Origin: Lytechinus pictus
Taxonomy: Eukaryota
Direction of reading: 5' to 3'
NCBI RefSeq assembly: GCF_037042905.1
Contig: NC_087245.1
Location: 2,916,001-2,980,000, forward strand
DNA: 64,000 bases
The notes under the pieces are model-generated. The model was given only the letters and a program-made list of their open reading frames with translations. It had not been told where the DNA came from and ran no database searches. Made by a program: the position numbers and the translations under genes. Shown piece after piece: positions 49,609 through 59,376 of the stretch; within the stretch, counting starts at the first letter, position 1; each line of letters opens with the position of its first letter.

Positions 49609-50877
49609 TTAAGAAAAAAAATGATGTAAAATGCTCATTAAATATATACTACTAATATGTTACTTAAAACAGCATGGTGTCCTTAAAATGGTAGATGGTG
49701 GGTCATGGTAAGTTCATGATCAACAAAAGTCAATGTATACACTTGATTTATAGGGACAAGAAATACCATCATTAAATAAAAACTTTAGTGAATTAAATCA
49801 TATGATTTTATTACCAGAATTGTATTGACCCAGAATGGTGCTGACCCAAATGCTATATTCACATTCAAATACTGTACTGTCTTGTTCCATATATTGTAAA
49901 ATGGTACTAAAACATTGTGTATGATATTATGGGCAATTTGGGCATAATGAATTTGCATTTCAGTAATTGCAAAATGATAATGTATTGCTAATCTGATCAT
50001 TATAGATAAATTATTCATTATAAATTCATTATCATCCTACTAACCCACACACTTACAAGGTCAAATGTAATCAGGTTGTAAAATATTAGCAAAGGGGCAA
50101 CTTATTGCTCTCTATAAATCTACTCATTGGTCATTTATTTTATTGTTCCCATAATAAACTGAAATTAAGAGAGACAACATATAATTTGAACTCTTTCTGT
50201 CCTCATATATTGTCATCATAAATTTCAAAGTCCAAAGTCATTTACGAACTCGACTAGGGAATTTTTTTATAAACCCCAATAAAGATTTCACATATTATAA
50301 AATAGTGTTGAATTGCTGCTGTTTGTTTGAAATTTGTTTGTTTTCAAGATATGAAGCTCACGTAAGCACTTGTCTTTCCCAAACAGCCACATGAAGTGGC
50401 AAATTGTACATTGTTCTAGTAGAACTTTAATGGACATGAGATAATGTTTTCAACCCGTATTCAACATTTTATCTACTATATATAACAAGGAAGAAAGTGT
50501 GAAATCTTTGTGTTTAAAAAAGATTAGGCATCATGCATTTACTTCAGTCGCAAAAGAACAAATACTGTAAAGAAACATAAGTTATTTTTACTTTTTCAAT
50601 GTCAATGAACACTGAAGATACATCAACTAATCCTGGTCATCTATTTGTATGATGTCGTACTCTGTAAGGTTATCTTCGTTATCGACTGAAACCAGAGGAT
50701 GTTGGATCTATTATTTTACCTTATTCGAGGCCACTTGATGTGATGGGATTTTGGTGAATAATACAATTTAAGATTCTAGACTTATTCCAGAGACTTCTTC
50801 AGAATGTCAAGTGTTCTGATAGACTATTTCACCCCGGGACCTCTCCTCCCATCTCTTCTTTCTCTTCAACTTGACAG

Positions 50878-51086
50878 TTTACGGAAGAAATCAAGACCCC
50901 ATGACCCCACCCGCCATGTCCAGCTGGCTCTGGATAGTGTGAAGGAGGAGGGAACTCCCCCAACGCCAAGGAAATACAAGAAGCGAGATGATGGGCGGCC
51001 AAGGGTCCAGATACGGATCGGGGATGATGAATCTGATGAGGAAGGAGACAAGGTGGACTGTGGAAGCGATGACCCGAACGAGAATG
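50878..51086 (+). CDS. SLC4 anion exchanger exon (LRKKSRPHD...DDPNEN)
   Basis: Long pyrimidine tract plus GACAG|, donor ATG|GTGAGT, phase 2 to 1; RVQIRIGDDESDEE resembles the SLC4 N-terminal RVQF..G-acidic motif. Confidence 0.8.
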
Positions 51087-53071
51087 GTGAGTACAACACA
51101 ATATTTGAAATAAAATGTGAGGTATCTGATGTTTTTGTAGAATTATTTCTTTGAGGAACAGGCATAAACTTCTTTTTTAACGAAGAAAAATTGGTTATTT
51201 GATAGGTACTAAATACAAAATATATAACAGTAAAGCAATTAAAATGTTTATGGGATAATGGGAGTTAGTCCTGCTGAGATATTGTCTTTGTATAATGTGG
51301 TAATGTTATTACTTCATTCATTTGGTGGTGGCAATACACCCCCTACCCATGTTAATTCGTCAAGAAATAATCTTTTGGCTATAGGAGGTTTGCCTATTTT
51401 CTTTTGCCTCTGAATGAATGCAGATACACAATGCACATCTGAATATGTGGGAAGCTTTGTTATGGTATTTTCCTTGAGCCAAGTGAACATGCAATGCCAT
51501 TCAAAACCAGTGAAGTGAAACCCCAGAATGAAACCATTCCTAAATCTACAGTGAAGTTTAGTCTGTAAATCAGTACACAGTTCTCAATTGAATAAAAGGT
51601 CTCCAAGGAGCTTATCACCTCTGTATATACTGTATAGGATACTTACAATATTGTGATGCAGTAAAGCATATCAGTGGAGGTTTTTATCTCTTTGTGTTTG
51701 AGGGGATTTTGCAAAACTATGTAGTCACCTCTTTAATGGAACTTTTATCTGAGAGTTTCAATCAGTGGATATTTTTAGGTTTTGCAGAACTGGTGTTGAA
51801 AGTCCACCAGTTCTTCATTGAATTTGCTAATCAGCATTTGTTTGCACTTTAAATGGTTTGATGAACAAGTTGCTGGTACTCATGTGTTCTGTGAATGTTT
51901 TAGCCTGCGGAAGTAACTTGCTGTGTTGTTTGTGTACAATGTTTGATGGTTGGTTGTACAAATGAAGGACAAATCATGATTTTGTAATGTGACCAAATGC
52001 AGTGTTTGTAGTTAGCTTGCACTGGGATTTAACTGTGGACCAGAATCAGTGTACATCTAGATTTGAGTTCTGATCAAATTCTCATTGGAACTGATGTTTT
52101 CATCACAAGGAAGAAGCAAATACATCCTATATTAGCTCAATTAGATTTTCTTTTCTAATTGTCTATAGTATAGAAGGGATTTTCCAGTGATATTTGTTCC
52201 ATTTCATCAGTTTTTAGTGGGATCCATCCAGGACTGATACAGAGAATATAATGGAACTACTCCACAGCCAATACCCGTAGCTGGATTTAATTTAGAATGC
52301 AAGGGGTATGAATTAGGTATAATCCCAATAACCTTGAACTGGTATCTTCAGGTATGAATTGAATATGCCAAAGAATTGATTCAGTAGTTTCCATGGGCTA
52401 TGAGTTTGGATATATCTGCATATAGCTGCTTGAAGGATGCAAAGCTAAAAGTGGTGGTGAAAGAGATGATCAGAAACTGCTTGGAGCATTGAATAAATTA
52501 CGCCTGACTCCTGAGTGTTAATACTCCTTTGACATCACAACAATAGTGTATCCTTGATGGACTACTACATGTAAATCCTCTGAATATGCATCAGTATGTA
52601 TAACGTCTGAATTAAAATGAGCAAAGAGAAAAATAAAAGGAAACTTCCAGAGAAAGAAGACAGATATGGTTCCCAGTATCAGGAAGGGAATGATCTGAAG
52701 CAACGTAAGTGATATCGATTTCAGGCTAGGTTCTATATGATCGTCAAGGAGATAACATTGATGATTGTTTGTAATCATATGGAGTCTTATGGAATTTGCA
52801 TCAGGCTTTAATACACTACTCAAAAAAAGTTAAGGACCACTTTTTAAAACGTACATAAAGATTTTATACAAGGTGTTTTATTTCTGGAAATACCTCAGTA
52901 CAACTGTCCTAAATGTCCTTAAACACGCTGTAATCAATTTCACGCATGGGTGGTTTCAGTTGTTGCACAATGTCTCTCGCATCACTGCACATCCTGAAAA
53001 GTGGGCCCCGAGGGGTATCAGCTACCGACATGAAGTGGTAAAAACGAATGTCTGAGTGTCTTTCAGGCAGT

Positions 53072-54100
53072 TCAGTAACGAGTGTGACCACCTCCTGCAG
53101 CAATAACGGCTTCACAGCGCTGTCTCATGGAGCTGATGAGGCGATTGATGTCTCTGACGTCCAGTGCATCCCATGCAGCCTCCACAGCCACACCCAGCTG
53201 CTGCAGTCCAAGTGGATGGGCTTCGAGCTGCTCGAGACTCCTCCCCATCATGTCCCAGACGTGCTCTATCGGGTTTAAGTCCGGGGACCTCGCTGGCCAC
53301 TCCATACGCTCAATCCCCTGGCCCTCAAGGAACTCGGTCACCACCCTAGCTCGGTGGGCACGGGCATTGTCATCCATGAAAATGATGTTTTGTCCCACAT
53401 TTTCTGCAAATGGCACCACTATAGGTTCAAGGACCTCATCCCTGTACCTCACTCCTGTCATTGCTCCCCCTGGGACCACGTAGAGACGAGTACGGTTGGC
53501 GTAGGTGATGCCTCCCCACACCATGACGCTGCCTCCCCCATAACGGTCATGTTCTGCAATACAGGGGTCTGCAAATCTCTCTCCTGGTCGCCTCCAGACT
53601 CTCGAACATCCATCATTGTGGTCAAGGGAAAATCTGCTCTCATCTGTGAACAGAACTCTACGCCATTGCTGTCTGGTCCATCTGACATGCTCCCGGGCCC
53701 AGTTGAGACGAATTCTTCTGTGAGCAGGGGTGAGTGGGACACACTGAGCTGGCCGTCTGGCATGCATATTGGCTCTGTGAAGTCGGTTACGGATTGTTTG
53801 AGTGGAAACAATCACTCCAGTTGCTGCAGCGAAGTCATTGTTGAGGCGGCGTGCACTGTGAAAGCGGTTGCGGAGGCTGAGATTCGTCAAGTAGCGATCA
53901 TCTCTAGGGGTTGTCGAAACTGGTCGGCCACTGCGGGGTCTCTCGGAGTATAGCCCTGTCTCTCGGTGTCTTTGATTTGCTCTGCTAATGACACTGTGTG
54001 ACACGCCCATCATTCTGGCTACTCTTCGCTGACTGAGGCCAGCTTCCAGCATCCCTAGGGCTCTGGCTACATCTGTTTCACTTAGGTGGTGTCTTGGCAT
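53072..54100 (-). CDS. Tc1-like DD34E transposase, left copy (342 aa)
   Basis: Paired-like HTH, RSGRP, FTDESRF, MDDNA-x34-E (SPDLNPIE); uninterrupted. Confidence 0.95.
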   Translation of the reverse strand: MPRHHLSETDVARALGMLEAGLSQRRVARMMGVSHSVISRANQRHRETGLYSERPRSGRPVSTTPRDDRYLTNLSLRNRFHSARRLNNDFAAATGVIVSTQTIRNRLHRANMHARRPAQCVPLTPAHRRIRLNWAREHVRWTRQQWRRVLFTDESRFSLDHNDGCSRVWRRPGERFADPCIAEHDRYGGGSVMVWGGITYANRTRLYVVPGGAMTGVRYRDEVLEPIVVPFAENVGQNIIFMDDNARAHRARVVTEFLEGQGIERMEWPARSPDLNPIEHVWDMMGRSLEQLEAHPLGLQQLGVAVEAAWDALDVRDINRLISSMRQRCEAVIAAGGGHTRY

Positions 54101-54440
54101 TGCTGTTGTAGGCAAGTTGTTGATTGTACAGACTAAAGACGGAAAATGCTTTGGAAGACACTTGTCTTATGGCCCACTGCAATGATGCCAGAGACATCAT
54201 GAAAGAACTGCATGTGTGAAATTGATGTCATTGTGTTTGATGGCATTCTGGACAGCTGTATCTTGGCATTGCTATTGTCAGCAAGTTGTTGATTGTAGAG
54301 ACTAAAGACAGAAAATGCTTTGGAAGCCACTTTTGTACGGGCACATTGCAATGATGCAAGAGACATGAAAGAACTGCATGTGTGAAATTGATTTCATTGT
54401 GTTTGATGGCATCCTGGACAGCTGGATAGCAATGCCAAGA
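54092..54440 (+). repeat. Diverged direct tandem repeat (2 x about 170 bp) forming the spacer of the palindrome
   Basis: 54092-54260 vs 54261-54427, both starting TCTTGGCATTGCT. Confidence 0.85.
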
Positions 54441-55460
54441 CACCACCTAAGTGAAACAGATGTAGCCAGAGCCCTAGGGATGCTGGAAGCTGGCCTCAGT
54501 CAGCGAAGAGTAGCCAGAATGATGGGCGTGTCACACAGTGTCATTAGCAGAGCAAATCAAAGACACCGAGAGACAGGGCTATACTCCGAGAGACCCCGCA
54601 GTGGCCGACCAGTTTCGACAACCCCTAGAGATGATCGCTACTTGACGAATCTCAGCCTCCGCAACCGCTTTCACAGTGCACGCCGCCTCAACAATGACTT
54701 CGCTGCAGCAACTGGAGTGATTGTTTCCACTCAAACAATCCGTAACCGACTTCACAGAGCCAATATGCATGCCAGACGGCCAGCTCAGTGTGTCCCACTC
54801 ACCCCTGCTCACAGAAGAATTCGTCTCAACTGGGCCCGGGAGCATGTCAGATGGACCAGACAGCAATGGCGTAGAGTTCTGTTCACAGATGAGAGCAGAT
54901 TTTCCCTTGACCACAATGATGGACGTTCGAGAGTCTGGAGGCGACCAGGAGAGAGATTTGCAGACCCCTGTATTGCAGAACATGACCGTTATGGGGGAGG
55001 CAGCGTCATGGTGTGGGGAGGCATCACCTACGCCAACCGTACTCGTCTCTACGTGGTCCCAGGGGGAGCAATGACAGGAGTGAGGTACAGGGATGAGGTC
55101 CTTGAACCTATAGTGGTGCCATTTGCAGAAAATGTGGGACAAAACATCATTTTCATGGATGACAATGCCCGTGCCCACCGAGCTAGGGTGGTGACCGAGT
55201 TCCTTGAGGGCCAGGGGATTGAGCGTATGGAGTGGCCAGCGAGGTCCCCGGACTTAAACCCGATAGAGCACGTCTGGGACATGATGGGGAGGAGTCTCGA
55301 GCAGCTCGAAGCCCATCCACTTGGACTGCAGCAGCTGGGTGTGGCTCTGGAGGCTGCATGGGATGCACTGGACGTCAGAGACATCAATCGCCTCATCAGC
55401 TCCATGAGACAGCGCTGTGAAGCCGTTATTGCTGCAGGAGGTGGTCACACTCGTTACTGA
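54432..55460 (+). CDS. Tc1-like DD34E transposase, right copy (342 aa)
   Basis: Same motifs; differs from the left copy at two residues (R/C, L/V). Confidence 0.95.
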   Translation: MPRHHLSETDVARALGMLEAGLSQRRVARMMGVSHSVISRANQRHRETGLYSERPRSGRPVSTTPRDDRYLTNLSLRNRFHSARRLNNDFAAATGVIVSTQTIRNRLHRANMHARRPAQCVPLTPAHRRIRLNWAREHVRWTRQQWRRVLFTDESRFSLDHNDGRSRVWRRPGERFADPCIAEHDRYGGGSVMVWGGITYANRTRLYVVPGGAMTGVRYRDEVLEPIVVPFAENVGQNIIFMDDNARAHRARVVTEFLEGQGIERMEWPARSPDLNPIEHVWDMMGRSLEQLEAHPLGLQQLGVALEAAWDALDVRDINRLISSMRQRCEAVIAAGGGHTRY

Positions 55461-55721
55461 ACTGCCTGAAAGACACTCAGACATTCGTTTTTACCACTTC
55501 ATGTCGGTAGCTGATACCCCTCGGGGCCCACTTTTCAGGATGTGCAGTGATGCGAGAGACATTGTGCAACAACTGAAACCACCCATGCGTGAAATTGATT
55601 ACAGCGTGTTTAAGGACATTTAGGACAGTTGTACTGAGGTATTTCCAGAAATAAAACACCTTGTATAAAATCTTTATGTACGTTTTAAAAAGTGGTCCTT
55701 AACTTTTTTTGAGTAGTGTAT

Positions 55722-57315
55722 ATTACCTCAATAATCTCAGATGTATCTGTCTACCTGTGCCATTTATCTTTCATGAATGTCCTGGAAGAAAGTACACCAA
55801 TTTTAGCGCAATAGCGCCATCTCTTGGTGAACTTATGAGTTATGACCTTGCAACTGGGCGTTGTGGCGTGCGCCTGTAATCCAATCTATGTGGGGAAGTT
55901 ACAAATTGATGCAGAGGTTCAAGCCCTGGTCACCTCTTTCGGATGGTGACGTTAAAGGTCGGTCCCAGACGTAAATAATCATATCTGATTGATACACGTC
56001 TGACAAAACTCAAATACACACACACACACTTCTGTTTGTATCAATCCCAAGCAAGCATGCGCACCAATTGTAACTTTTCTTTCTTCACCCTCGGAGCGTC
56101 AACACGTCTTTCGTCTGTGCTCCGAAAGCTAAGTGAAGTTGTATACTTTCCAAATTGTGTTTTGCGTTTTGGATATTTAGTTATGCTTCAAATTTTCCAG
56201 ACTTTATCTTACTGTAGTTTAATTTATGACTGGTTTATAGTTTATACTTCTGTCCGCAGAGTGTGGCGTTAGCTTACATTTACATGTATAGCTAATTCTC
56301 TGTTGAGCTTGTGTTAGTTATACGTTGTCAATGTGAGGCTCTCCTTCATGCTTGCTGCTGCTGCATAGCTGTCGCTCTCTCTCTTTCGCGCTCCGTTGTT
56401 TAGCGTGATAGGGTTTTTAGAGACGACTTCTCCGTCTCCTTTTTTGTTTTCACAGTTCAGGCTGTTTGAATTTTTTCTGAATTCTTTCTTCATCTTCGGA
56501 GGTCTCTTTATTCTTATAAATTGTGCCTCTTATTTTCTTAGAATATTTTAAGATAGATTCTTGATAGCATCGCATTACATGCTTCTGTTTTGACAAGACA
56601 TAGTATGTTCGCAAATCGGAACAACTCTTGTATTCTCGCACGAATCCTGCCTTTACCGCTTCTTCGTTTTGCAAGATCCAAGCGGCGGGTGCCGGCACGT
56701 GGCTATATTGATGCGAGGTCGGAGGCTCTTGATACTAAGAAGTATCCACTTGTCTTGAGCACTCTCCTTCAAGGTGTTCTCGACAACTTCAGACGCTCCT
56801 GGTGCTTTGCGTTTTCCTTACATCTTCTTTTAAGGTAAATTCCTCGGCTGAGGAGAGCTTGCGCCCTCAGCTTTGAAAGCAGCGGCCTCTGCATCTACAT
56901 CTCCCTTGAACTTAGTTACTTCCTTTTTTTTTGACATACCTACCAAGGTTATCCTTGCCAGTCTAGCAAAGTAGATGGAACCATCAAGATTATTGAAGTA
57001 AATCATGAAAGTACTTGCCTGATTTTCTTATGTATGAGATAATTGGATGTATCTTTCTACTATCCTGCCCTCTGTCCCCTCACCTTGCGTGGCCACTTGT
57101 CACTTTTGCGAGTGCTCAGAGGAGGTTTAACATGTATGCTAATATGATATATGAATGTGAGCAGAAGTAGAAGTGGTCATGTGTTCACTGGGAGATGGTA
57201 CGATTGCATAATAATCTGAGTACGTACATATATTCGAGGGTAGTCCATGAAACATGAACTAACAGGAGTAGAAGGATACATAAATAAGAAAATCAGGTAA
57301 GTATTGTCATGATTT
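55722..57315 (+). mobile_element. Decayed non-autonomous DIRS1-like (tyrosine-recombinase) retroelement
   Basis: Left end about 55722-56035 is a degenerate inverted repeat of about 57160-57280; right extension ends GGTAAGTATTGTCATGATTT; internal region 56971-57037 is complementary to the joined right and left ends (ICR). No intact ORF. Confidence 0.7.
55853..56028 (+). mobile_element. SINE-like insertion with 7SL (SRP RNA Alu-domain) head and (CA)n tail
   Basis: ACTGGGCGTTGTGGCGTGCGCCTGTAATCCAATCTATGTGGGGAAGTT resembles the 7SL 5' end; B box GGTTCAAGCCC; TTTCGGATGGTGACGTTAAAGGTCGGTCCC central motif; interrupts the DIRS left repeat. Confidence 0.7.
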
Positions 57316-59376
57316 CAGAGAGCATAGATATTAACCATGCAACAGTCACTTCAAGAGAAAGAGCTTATGAAATAAAAAGGAAATGGATTCTGTCTAACTT
57401 AGCTTTAACTTCCTTTTATCAGGCTTTATTGAGGAAGTAGGTAAATTATACAGAAATCAATTTTTAAAAATTGCATATTGGAAATGGACTTCATTAGTAT
57501 GCTTTGCACACAGACACGGGCACAACGTGAGATTTATATTGTTCATGAAGCATCATGCTAGCATAGAGCTAATAGCTCCATGATGTACACAAGAAAAATC
57601 CTTTCATCTTTACAAGAAGAGAGCCCAGAATAATGTACATGTCCACAGGAAGAACATGTTTTTGTCTTTTCGGCAATGAGGGAATCGGAAGGTAGAGTAT
57701 ACTACAGAACATTCAAAGTGCATGTGATTATAAATTAATGGGTCTAGACAACATTTCATTCTTGGTACTGGTGAACAAAATGTGAATTACATGACTATCA
57801 TATTCAACTAGAGGTTTTCTTTGGGCCTGCTGTACCTTATTTTGTTCGTACTTGTCCCCTTTATAGGTGTCATTTTTATATTTATGTATTTTACTTTGGG
57901 ATCGAATATTATGTTTCATTTAGGTAGGAAGTGTCTTGTAACTCTGGATATCAAAGGTTACCTTACCAATGTTCACCCATGGTCTGCTACTATAATATGA
58001 AGGAACTAATTCAAAATATTGCCATGAATCTGGATTCTGGAGGGGGGGGGGCAAAGTTTGATGTAGTTGTGTGTTCATGTTCCATTCTCTATTCAATAGA
58101 GTTGTTTCAGTACAATTTCTTTTAATGCTGTATTTACAAGTAGATTCTATCAGACTCAGATTATATCAAACTCAAAGTAAAGTTTCAAATACAGTATTGT
58201 ACTTCGGTGTTGTGTAAAAGAATGAATCAGAAAATCTATTATTGTTTCATGGTAAAGAGTATATTAGTCATTTTGAAGGGAGAAGGAAATGATGAAAAAG
58301 CATATCTATTGTGTGGGAGACGGTGTTTGTTATTTCATGGGCAGTTAGTTGTTTTTTATGCTATGCATGTTTGAAATCAGACTCAAATCGAAACCCCACC
58401 AGGACCGGTTTCCTGTGCGTCTCCTTGCTGAGAGGAAATCGTTATGCAACTTTGACAATAAAGCGAGTTTACAAATGATGGTCATTTTGACTTCTGTGGA
58501 AGGACAATAAACAGGCTAGTTCATTATTAGATGTTTTATTTCACCATTGGTTATCCAAAGAGCAATACATGATTTTAGGTATAAGATGGGTGTTTGACTG
58601 GAAGGAGACAAACAATTGTTAACAGTATAGATTATTCTCTCTTGGAACACTCTATAGGACGAGGATGAGACGACGCTTGCGCTCGGCCGAAGAAGGTATA
58701 TTCTTGAAAAGATATTAACCTGTTGTGCACAGGAAGGGGTATTTCCCAGATTAAGCCTTAAGGATCAAGTGAACGACAAGTGTAGTCAGATCAAGTCGTT
58801 GGAAACCAAGTTCAACTGGCATGATCTGCAAGTGATACAACATGTCTTTGCTTTCTTTACTTGATGTGTTGTGTTGAATGCACATGTTGAATGCATTATT
58901 TATATCCAGACAAATTTGCCCTATTTTCAGTGGAAGCTTTTTGTAAAGAGGAAAAATGAACAAAAACTACAATGTTTGATTTTGATCTGCACCAGTGGCT
59001 CTTTTGTGTTGCGGGTGTTAACATGAGAAGTTAAATTATGAGGGGTGACTGCACTATTTCTGGTTGGAAGATTCTCAACACAAACAAATGTTTTTTTATG
59101 AATATGTAAAGGGAAAAAAAAATCTTGGATACCACACCATGGTTATGTAGGGTTACATGTAACTACCCTTACTAATCGGAAGCAGCTGTATTTGTTGTCC
59201 AAAAACAATAATTTGCACCCTTATATTAAATGACTTGTTCAACTGCATTGTAAAAAAATCTGTTTATAATCTGTGTTATTGAATTTTAAAAAGTCTGATA
59301 GATTCTTATTTTCTTATGTTTATTAAACAAGGACTATGATCAAACAGATCTTTATTTCATTGATATGATGGCACTA

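Follow-up and report, generated by a model that had tools for sequence, protein, structure and literature searches.

Members of the Tc1 family carry one transposase gene between terminal inverted repeats (TIRs) of tens to a few hundred base pairs. How, then, could an element arise in which each inverted arm is a complete transposase gene, and is such an element a transposon in its own right? The case considered here lies on contig NC_087245.1 of Lytechinus pictus, in a stretch of 64,000 nucleotides (hereafter the window, in whose coordinates positions are given). An initial annotation had described a pair of inverted arms of 1291 nt separated by a spacer of 323 bp, each arm running from just 5' of an ATG through an intact DD34E open reading frame (ORF) to the terminus, with symmetry ending at the flanking TA. 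Inverted-repeat detection found the same structure again, at 52811-54104 and 54428-55721, with 1294 nt on each side, 323 nt between them and a printed complementarity of 100%. The 1294 nt detected are made up of the 1291-nt arm, the flanking TA and one extra base matching by chance. The ends of the element read TA-CACTACTC...GAGTAGTG-TA, and the TA on both sides is the target-site duplication expected of a Tc1 transposon. Each arm starts 4 nt 5' of the ATG (AGCA/ATG) and continues past a 342-codon ORF to the terminus; ORF and domain analysis agrees with the annotation here, and also on the divergent orientation of the two ORFs, which both point outward from the centre. With its two genes and arms of 1291 nt, the window element thus derives from a Tc1 family member without being a standard member itself (Table 1).

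Table 1. Features of the twin-gene element in window coordinates; canonical positions refer to the 1896-bp parent.
Feature	Position	Strand	Basis or detail
Whole right-right (type A) Tc1 derivative, 2905 bp	52814..55718	.	canonical 1896->283 (reverse), then 606->1896
TA target-site duplication, left copy	52812..52813	.	sequence
TA target-site duplication, right copy	55719..55720	.	sequence
Left arm	52814..54104	-	canonical 1896->606
Right arm	54428..55718	+	canonical 606->1896
Right-end TIR of the parent, serving as left terminus	52814..53008	-	canonical 1896->1702
Right-end TIR	55524..55718	+	canonical 1702->1896
Left transposase ORF, 342 aa + stop	53072..54100	-	carries private R165C and L306V
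Right transposase ORF, 342 aa + stop	54432..55460	+	identical to family consensus
Asymmetric spacer, 5' leader of the parent	54105..54427	-	canonical 605->283; repeat analysis and comparison with parent
Fold-back junction	54427..54428	.	canonical 283 joined to 606; BLAST against parent
Private substitution of the window copy, C	53185	.	G in 17 other copies
Private substitution of the window copy, A	53608	.	G in 17 other copies

The element has the transposase, ends and target rule of an ordinary Tc1. In Pfam, both ORFs match HTH_Tnp_Tc3_2 (E 7e-19) and DDE_3 (E 3e-19). The DD34E triad, located from sequence motifs and not from a structure, is D153, D244 and E279, the last two being 34 residues apart, and 3871 homologues were found at E <= 0.001 among 8000 scored, the source names being Tc1-like and Tcb1/Tcb2 transposase. 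The left protein differs from the right at the two residues given in Table 1. Moreover, the conventional single-ORF parent that the annotation had proposed to look for exists in the same genome. It is a canonical Tc1 of 1896 bp with one ORF and TIRs of about 194-195 bp, which are 84% identical between left and right with the outer 34 bp identical in both; it thus follows the one-gene, short-TIR plan of the family. All of the canonical copies fetched (11 of 11; L031-L041) are 1896 bp long and TA-flanked, with the ORF intact, and they show 0-4 differences per 1896 bases from their own consensus; since the copies fetched were the best-scoring matches, the divergence figures reported here are biased low. 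The parental family looks very young, and active or very recently active.

Comparison with this parent explains the composition of the window element and of its relatives, which we refer to as type A. Type A lacks the left 282 bp of the parent, which comprise the left TIR plus the first leader repeat; in their place stands, inverted, a second copy of the segment from 4 nt 5' of the ATG through the right terminus, giving two identical right termini and two head-to-head transposase genes. Between the type-A and canonical consensus sequences, only one of 1614 shared positions differs (54425, G versus T in the parent), 3 nt from the junction, and type A must therefore be very recent. The spacer has no symmetry of its own. 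It consists of two tandem leader units of 166-169 bp, each with a start-codon motif at its end and both oriented like the left (minus-strand) gene, so that it is the native upstream region for the left ORF only: the left ORF keeps 327 bp of native leader, and the sequence upstream of the right ORF is inverted leader only. A joint from 54413 to 54248 in contigs of public runs corresponds to the third leader unit of the parent. The 166-bp leader unit is the sole tandem repeat in the element and lies within the spacer; the arms are unique transposase-gene sequence, whereas those of classical Foldback elements are built of short tandem subrepeats with no coding sequence or an unrelated one. At the junction itself the BLAST segments are adjacent, with no overlap, microhomology or filler.

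The annotation had viewed the element as a unit with two "right ends" that inserted as a whole, and had proposed a search for the same architecture elsewhere. A 34-mer spanning the junction (at most 2 mismatches allowed) occurs at 27 loci in the window's own genome, and its reversed control at 0; a metagenome scan with the 34-mer gave 0 matches. At 18 of the 27 loci the element is full length (2901-2909 bp), the other nine being deleted or rearranged derivatives. The 18 full-length copies are spread over 10 contigs, with mutually unrelated flanks and a TA on both sides of each, as in every family member examined (57/57). One internal junction combined with different flanks is the mark of mobility as a unit. 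Type A has thus spread as a unit by TA-targeted cut-and-paste, which bears out the annotation, and the window element is a real mobile unit, not the product of an artefact or of rearrangement in place. The palindrome could otherwise have been read as an assembly artefact (a fold-back chimeric read or a mis-join), or as the local rearrangement of a normal Tc1 that never moved, and the contigs of public runs do break at the ends of the element and at its junction: in four such runs none bridges 54427/54428, the flank-element boundary or the empty site. Chimeric reads, however, predict random junctions and no target-site duplications, and neither they nor a local event would be expected to leave an identical junction at 27 loci, 18 of them with unrelated flanks and TA on each side. 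That reading is already close to refuted, and we regard it as highly improbable.

The same loci bear on whether the element is a single unit at all, or instead a pair of independent Tc1 insertions, placed head to head or one within the other. Other transposons are known to insert twice at one site. They should, however, leave inner termini, and neither a left-end terminus nor a second, inner TA duplication is present in the sequence of the window element; the left end is absent from both halves, and the join connects leader position 283 to 606, 4 nt before the ATG, at all 27 loci alike. Two independent insertions are consequently so improbable that we give them almost no weight.

The near identity of the arms had been attributed in the annotation to homogenisation by intra-element conversion. 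The two arm mismatches that it listed, 53185/55347 and 53608/54924, are real, and no others exist. Both changes are in the left arm, with G at both positions in 17 of 17 other full-length copies and in contigs of three public runs. The arms of the type-A consensus are identical to each other; individual copies differ from that consensus by about 0.2%, through private changes, and their variation forms a star-like pattern in which almost all of the 109 variable columns are singletons, with 84 of 94 arm differences not mirrored in the other arm. Recent origin is thus sufficient to account for arms this alike, and conversion is not needed. Symmetric changes are nevertheless in excess, with 5 pairs in 3 of the 18 copies against 0.035 expected. 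This excess is consistent with occasional conversion between the arms, or with assembly polishing that acted across both; two of the five changes are deletions of a single base and may be errors of polishing.

The excess of symmetric changes would also suit a stronger proposal, namely that the twin-gene architecture evolved as such, the doubled, divergent transposase being selected and the arms kept identical by continual intra-element conversion. Both ORFs are intact in 12 of the 18 full-length copies, and, of the 24 junction types, type A alone was seen to keep both ORFs complete; at 27 loci, it also outnumbers the rest. Yet the unmirrored private changes and the identical consensus arms call for nothing beyond youth, and an element one base from its parent is very recent. 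Moreover, type A is far from alone. Sampling of 24 further right-right elements yielded 21-22 distinct junctions and, with types A and C, at least 24 types (three sampled right-right elements were left out of this count), so that the right-right architecture is a frequent accident. An evolved twin-gene design is thus improbable, and the annotation's idea of a separate family built on it is not supported in that form: one young family has independently given rise to at least 24 right-right fold-backs, type A among them.

These other right-right elements are informative about how they were made. At their junctions the BLAST segments overlap by 1-11 nt or are separated by a filler of 1-7 nt, and breakpoints are concentrated in a hotspot at canonical 549-716 (17 of 48, against 4.3 expected; P about 4e-7). 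The largest element measures 3112 bp. One type-B copy, L019, contains a 25-nt inverted copy of its own flank. The ends themselves are unevenly represented in the genome, the right-end 40-mer occurring 425 times and the left-end 40-mer 135 times, counts that suggest about 145 right-right elements; no left-left pair was found by eye among 100 left ends listed.

We conclude that the window element very probably represents a mobile fold-back form, right-right in structure, that derives from a very young Tc1 (DD34E) of 1896 bp. Its junction would have a single origin: repair synthesis following excision would have switched template or folded back, and end joining would have completed the join. The template-switch step is modelled on the proposal made for Goblin, a MITE of Aedes aegypti (213 bp, non-coding, 15 copies) that descends from the Tc1/mariner element Ozma and whose origin is ascribed to a left-to-right TIR template switch in gap repair followed by end joining (PMC3814204). 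As in type A, both subterminal regions of Goblin come from the right end of the parent, one of them inverted, and the product is mobile and multi-copy; for type A, too, the parent is found in the same genome. Goblin differs in having a 6-bp microhomology at its junction, where type A has none, and in that its outermost 28 bp match the 5' end of the parent (PMC3814204). The end-joining step is thus not marked in type A as it is in Goblin. Furthermore, the type-A arms are 1291 nt long with a complete transposase gene in each, and the genome holds at least 24 junction types (compare PMC3814204). Galileo of Drosophila likewise has kilobase inverted arms and large structural variation among its copies, and its origin is attributed to abortive or template-switching gap repair; it belongs to the P superfamily, however, and the part of the account drawn on here does not present its long TIRs as complete genes for a transposase (PMC4168063).

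A template switch from TIR to TIR predicts left-left elements as often as right-right ones, and the absence of the former consequently requires an extra assumption, either end preference or loss. Possibly, elements with two right ends are good, and perhaps better, substrates for the transposase, by analogy with engineered Mos1 right-right transposons; this would account for right-right forms being common and left-left forms unseen. The transposase could be supplied by at least the left ORF, with its 327 bp of native leader.

End preference also lies at the root of a different route, in which two right-end fragments from two excised or broken copies co-insert at one TA and have their inner ends joined by end joining; the weakly held left sides would be degraded while the transposase grips the right ends, each type being born at a new site. 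Such co-insertion would account directly for a right-right excess without left-left elements, for a unique junction in each type together with clean TA flanks, and for the junction fillers and short overlaps, and mariner transposases have been documented to favour one end (PMC4505599). It leaves the breakpoint hotspot at canonical 549-716 without a reason, however, and no near-complete head-to-head dimers were seen, the maximum right-right size being 3112 bp; in addition, the inverted flank copy of L019 resembles repair synthesis leaving an end and is better fitted by the repair model. We know of no experiment on the co-insertion of two right-end fragments in Tc1, and we consider this route possible, if on the unlikely side. 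Other routes were set aside. Autointegration of an excised copy would put a terminus beside an internal TA, and none was seen in the sequence. On reasoning, pairing of right ends between sister chromatids predicts chromosome rearrangements, not compact TA-flanked elements, and a spread of type A by ectopic gap repair is disfavoured in that the excised site retains no homology to the element.

A search of the open-access literature by title and start of abstract turned up no description of a Tc1/mariner element whose arms hold two transposase genes. Tc4 of C. elegans is foldback-like and has very long TIRs, with arms that are non-coding. Mu killer of maize is a natural inverted duplication of part of an autonomous transposon, from which a hairpin RNA silences the parent; it is a single immobile locus, and double Ds is an element inserted into its own copy. 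Unlike both, type A is mobile and would have been made by a fold-back join, with silencing as a candidate role. Read-through of the element would give a 1.3-kb perfect double-stranded RNA that silences its own family, as Mu killer does, a role compatible with the fold-back origin that we favour. The arms, 1291 nt and perfect in the consensus, would suit such a source, family sequence is present in contigs of an oligo-dT RNA library, and an RNA system triggered by paired DNA-transposon inverted repeats in mRNAs has been reported (PMC12779559). On the other hand, no junction-crossing transcript was seen in the public-run contigs examined, the sense transcripts of the two arms are identical and not complementary, and the family looks active or recently active, with 0-4 differences per 1896 bases and 11 of 11 canonical ORFs intact. 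A hairpin-RNA function is thus rather improbable. As to the surroundings of the insertion, an Rfam search over 50000-58500 gave no family, a tRNA scan over 55700-56300 found none, and five neighbouring stop-to-stop ORFs gave nothing in Pfam, so that no host gene is placed around it.

Transposons with two identical ends have been engineered from Mos1 and Mboumar-9, and in vitro both transpose best when each terminus is of the preferred kind (PMC4505599, which cites Auge-Gouillou et al. 2001). Like those constructs, the window element has the same natural end at both termini, in place of an imperfect left/right pair; the constructs, however, are made in the laboratory from 28-32-bp repeats and a marker gene, whereas the window element is natural and carries its own transposase twice (compare PMC4505599). 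A further reading, which we consider doubtful, is that the right end is strongly preferred, that repair keeps making right-right fold-backs, and that type A, self-sufficient with its pair of perfect preferred ends and its pair of transposase genes, outcompetes the other fold-back types and is replacing the left-right parent; if so, a natural change of transposon architecture would have been caught in progress. In any event, if the inferences drawn here hold, type A would be a natural counterpart to the laboratory result that Tc1/mariner elements move best with two same ends. The at least 24 independent junctions and their hotspot would provide material on how repair makes long-TIR or hairpin elements and, by further deletion, MITEs, and the twin-gene form would show that a fold-back by-product can retain full coding capacity and spread. 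The genome of L. pictus would then contain dozens of sites with a perfect 1.3-kb hairpin template directed at a transposase that looks active.

The window element belongs to a right-right fold-back form of a Tc1 family (type A; right-right meaning bounded by two copies of the parent's right end) that goes back to one founding join and has since moved, as one unit, into TA sites. In an inverted-repeat search the dominant inverted repeat of the region has arms at 52811-54104 and 54428-55721 with 323 nt in between; read against the sequence, the element proper covers 52814-55718 (2905 bp), starts with CACTACTC, ends with GAGTAGTG and has TA on either side, the three additional symmetric bases of the repeat being the TA and one chance match. 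Each arm spans 1291 nt: it opens 4 nt 5' of an ATG, takes in the whole ORF of 342 codons and closes at the terminus. Both ORF products carry the Pfam domains HTH_Tnp_Tc3_2 and DDE_3 and the residues D153, D244 and E279 (D244-E279 spacing, 34 residues), and the left and right proteins differ at two residues, R165C and L306V; these match the arm mismatches at 53185 and 53608 of the initial annotation. The closest relatives beyond the element's own family show 52-59% identity (at least 3871 homologues among 8000 scored); the transposase, ends and target are those of an ordinary Tc1. The spacer is asymmetric: a unit of 166-169 bp occurs in it twice in tandem, each time oriented as the left (minus-strand) gene; the left ORF retains 327 bp of its native leader, and upstream of the right ORF there is inverted leader only. 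To the right of the element, at a distance of 130 bp, is a dispersed repeat about 180 bp long (window 55851-56030). It shares 96-98% identity with dozens of scored matches, drawn from 1526 first-look genome candidates, is covered to very high depth by the contigs of two runs, gave no tRNA and no Rfam match, and may be a SINE or MITE.

A whole-element search of the species' own assembly (811 Mb, 368 contigs; 40 of 297 candidates scored) returned 18 full-length type-A matches, distributed over ten contigs and 2901-2909 bp long. Moreover, a 34-nt junction word was found at 27 loci (reversed control, 0), namely the 18 full-length copies and nine deleted or rearranged derivatives (L024-L029 and L067-L069). 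TA is present on both sides of all 18 full-length copies, whose 1-kb flanks show no mutual match; flank matches among these copies and the other loci compared involve simple repeats or other dispersed repeats only, and the single true flank duplication is between two copies of a 2938-bp form. Across the family, 57 of 57 members examined have TA on both sides, the target having the form A-TA-T. The common junction at 27 loci, with unrelated flanks and TA on both sides, bears out the proposal that the element inserted as a whole and represents a mobile family. Assembly artefact, in-place rearrangement and double insertion were rejected, as none can yield this junction at 27 loci together with unrelated TA-flanked sites.

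The proposed conventional, single-ORF parent was also found. A third and numerous group of matches in the search covers positions 1-1614 only and resumes about 90 bp further on with 194 bp that share 84% identity with the terminus; this group is the parent. The 11 copies fetched all measure 1896 bp, lie between TA dinucleotides and hold a single intact ORF; each departs from their common consensus at 0-4 positions. In parent (canonical) coordinates, type A consists of 1896 to 283, reversed, followed by 606 to 1896; of the 1614 positions that type A and the parent share, a single one differs, 3 nt away from the join. In the parent, the outer 34 bp are the same in both TIRs, and identity over the full TIRs is 84%. 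The parent 5' leader (e.g., L031:2279-2691, at one parent locus) comprises 2.5-3 tandem units of 166-169 bp, two of the three being found at window 54089-54427; each unit closes 6 nt past the start codon and resembles the inner TIR, matching window 52899-52948 at 77-78% when inverted. A block of inner TIR plus leader thus seems to have been triplicated here, and may provide extra transposase-binding or promoter copies.

Coordinates of parent features and of the breakpoint cluster
Feature	Canonical position	Window position
Left TIR	1-194	
Leader, three tandem units, each closing with the start-codon motif (motif positions given)	271, 437, 606	
ORF	ATG 610; stop ends 1638	
Right TIR	1702-1896	
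Breakpoint cluster	549-716	53994-54104 and 54428-54538 (arms); 54105-54161 (spacer)

Type A is one of many right-right derivatives. End-specific 40-nt words occur 425 times (right) and 135 times (left) in the genome; from this excess the number of elements with two right ends can be put at roughly 145. Pairing by eye gave about 40 facing pairs among the first 100 right ends listed and none among the 100 left ends listed. We dissected 24 right-end pairs without the type-A junction (three further sampled pairs were left out); each sits between TA dinucleotides at a site unrelated to the others, and together they represent 22 different fold-back junctions, two of which were seen twice. One of the 22 (642|213) defines type B, 2938 bp long; at least four relatives of that length were among the 40 of 297 candidates scored. 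Type A and the 2925-bp type C (locus L042) bring the junction types to 24. Where BLAST segments meet at the junctions, they leave fillers of at most 7 nt or overlap by up to 11 nt. Breakpoints are concentrated near the start codon and the leader repeats' inner edge (canonical 549-716; 17/48, against 4.3 expected; P ~4e-7), and it is because its junction at 606 falls in this hotspot that the arms of type A start just 5' of the ATG. A second, smaller cluster (7/48) is in the left TIR, within its first 100 bp. Two complete ORFs are found in type A only, one in 18 types and none in five; type A also has the highest locus count. Two different right-right elements, L049 (contig C1, ~43.39 Mb) and L059 (contig C3, ~4.97 Mb), are each interrupted in the right TIR region, at one and the same point between canonical 1794 and 1787, by ~580 bp of unrelated inserted sequence; this may be another small transposon targeting that site, or may point to shared ancestry of that arm.

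We infer that the type-A join was made during excision-gap repair. In the model outlined for the Goblin MITE, the newly copied left TIR switches to the right TIR of the template, so that both nascent strands carry right-end sequence and end joining is needed (PMC3814204); here, such a switch would be allowed by the identical outer 34 bp of the parent TIRs. As to spread, two identical right ends would be at least as good a transposase substrate as the natural pair, by analogy with Mos1 and Mboumar-9, for which two preferred ends are described as transposing best in vitro and two of the other end poorly (PMC4505599). End preference would also explain the missing left-left forms, whereas the switch model alone does not. 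Co-integration of two right-end fragments, joined afterwards, would account for the right-right bias directly, but it leaves the breakpoint hotspot unexplained and we regard it as rather unlikely. A transcript across both arms would fold into a 1.3-kb hairpin; no such transcript was seen in the contigs of public runs. Bearing on formation, in the 2938-bp type-B copy L019 (contig C7, ~21.21 Mb) 25 nt of the right flank recur in inverted form on the left side, and beyond them lies a 2.1-kb partial inverted type-B copy ending at canonical 1059 (L019:1060-1500 and L019:4439-4463, with L023). The rearrangement is local and complex, and may be a scar of repair synthesis running out of an element end.

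The 18 full-length type-A copies have 109 variable alignment columns, nearly all singletons, and their consensus arms are identical at 1291/1291 positions. The two mismatches of the window element are private to its left arm, the consensus base being present at both sites in contigs of three public runs. In total, the copies show 94 arm differences (~0.2%, biased low since the best matches were fetched), and both ORFs are intact in 12/18, one in 5/18 and both broken at the same place in 1/18. Homogenisation of the arms by conversion had been proposed initially; the identical consensus arms and the private changes indicate instead that the arms are alike because the copies are young. Conversion keeps a lesser part, as five changes occur symmetrically, on both arms of the copy concerned (L018 has three, L014 and L015 have one each), against 0.035 expected under independent arm mutation (at least five in 0/20000 simulations). 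Occasional arm-to-arm conversion is thus indicated, although polishing across the arms could mimic it, especially for two single-base deletions. These, with one G>A, lie within a 150-nt tract in L018 (contig C3, ~35.59 Mb); because the three changes are mirrored, the two ORFs are interrupted at one shared codon, which makes L018 the foremost candidate for conversion, or else for polishing across arms. A 1498-nt contig corresponding to window 52818-54315 is present in each of runs X1, X9 and X12 (coded organisms A, B and D), with 2-3 bases different; either these labels denote close relatives or the family is common to the species almost unchanged. An "echinoderm metagenome" RNA library also contains family sequence.

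Derivatives of the same kind are known, in miniature, from the published description of Goblin (PMC3814204), and faulty gap repair is already given as the origin of the long-armed foldback transposon Galileo (PMC4168063). The two-preferred-end effect is likewise described for Mos1 and Mboumar-9, in constructs (PMC4505599), whereas here it would concern a natural element. Among the papers listed in searches of the open-access literature, judged by title and abstract start, we found neither a natural Tc1/mariner element with whole transposase genes as arms nor a family in which about half of the copies are right-right palindromes. What the window contributes is a twin-gene subfamily, a catalogue of junctions, a breakpoint hotspot and a test of arm conversion.
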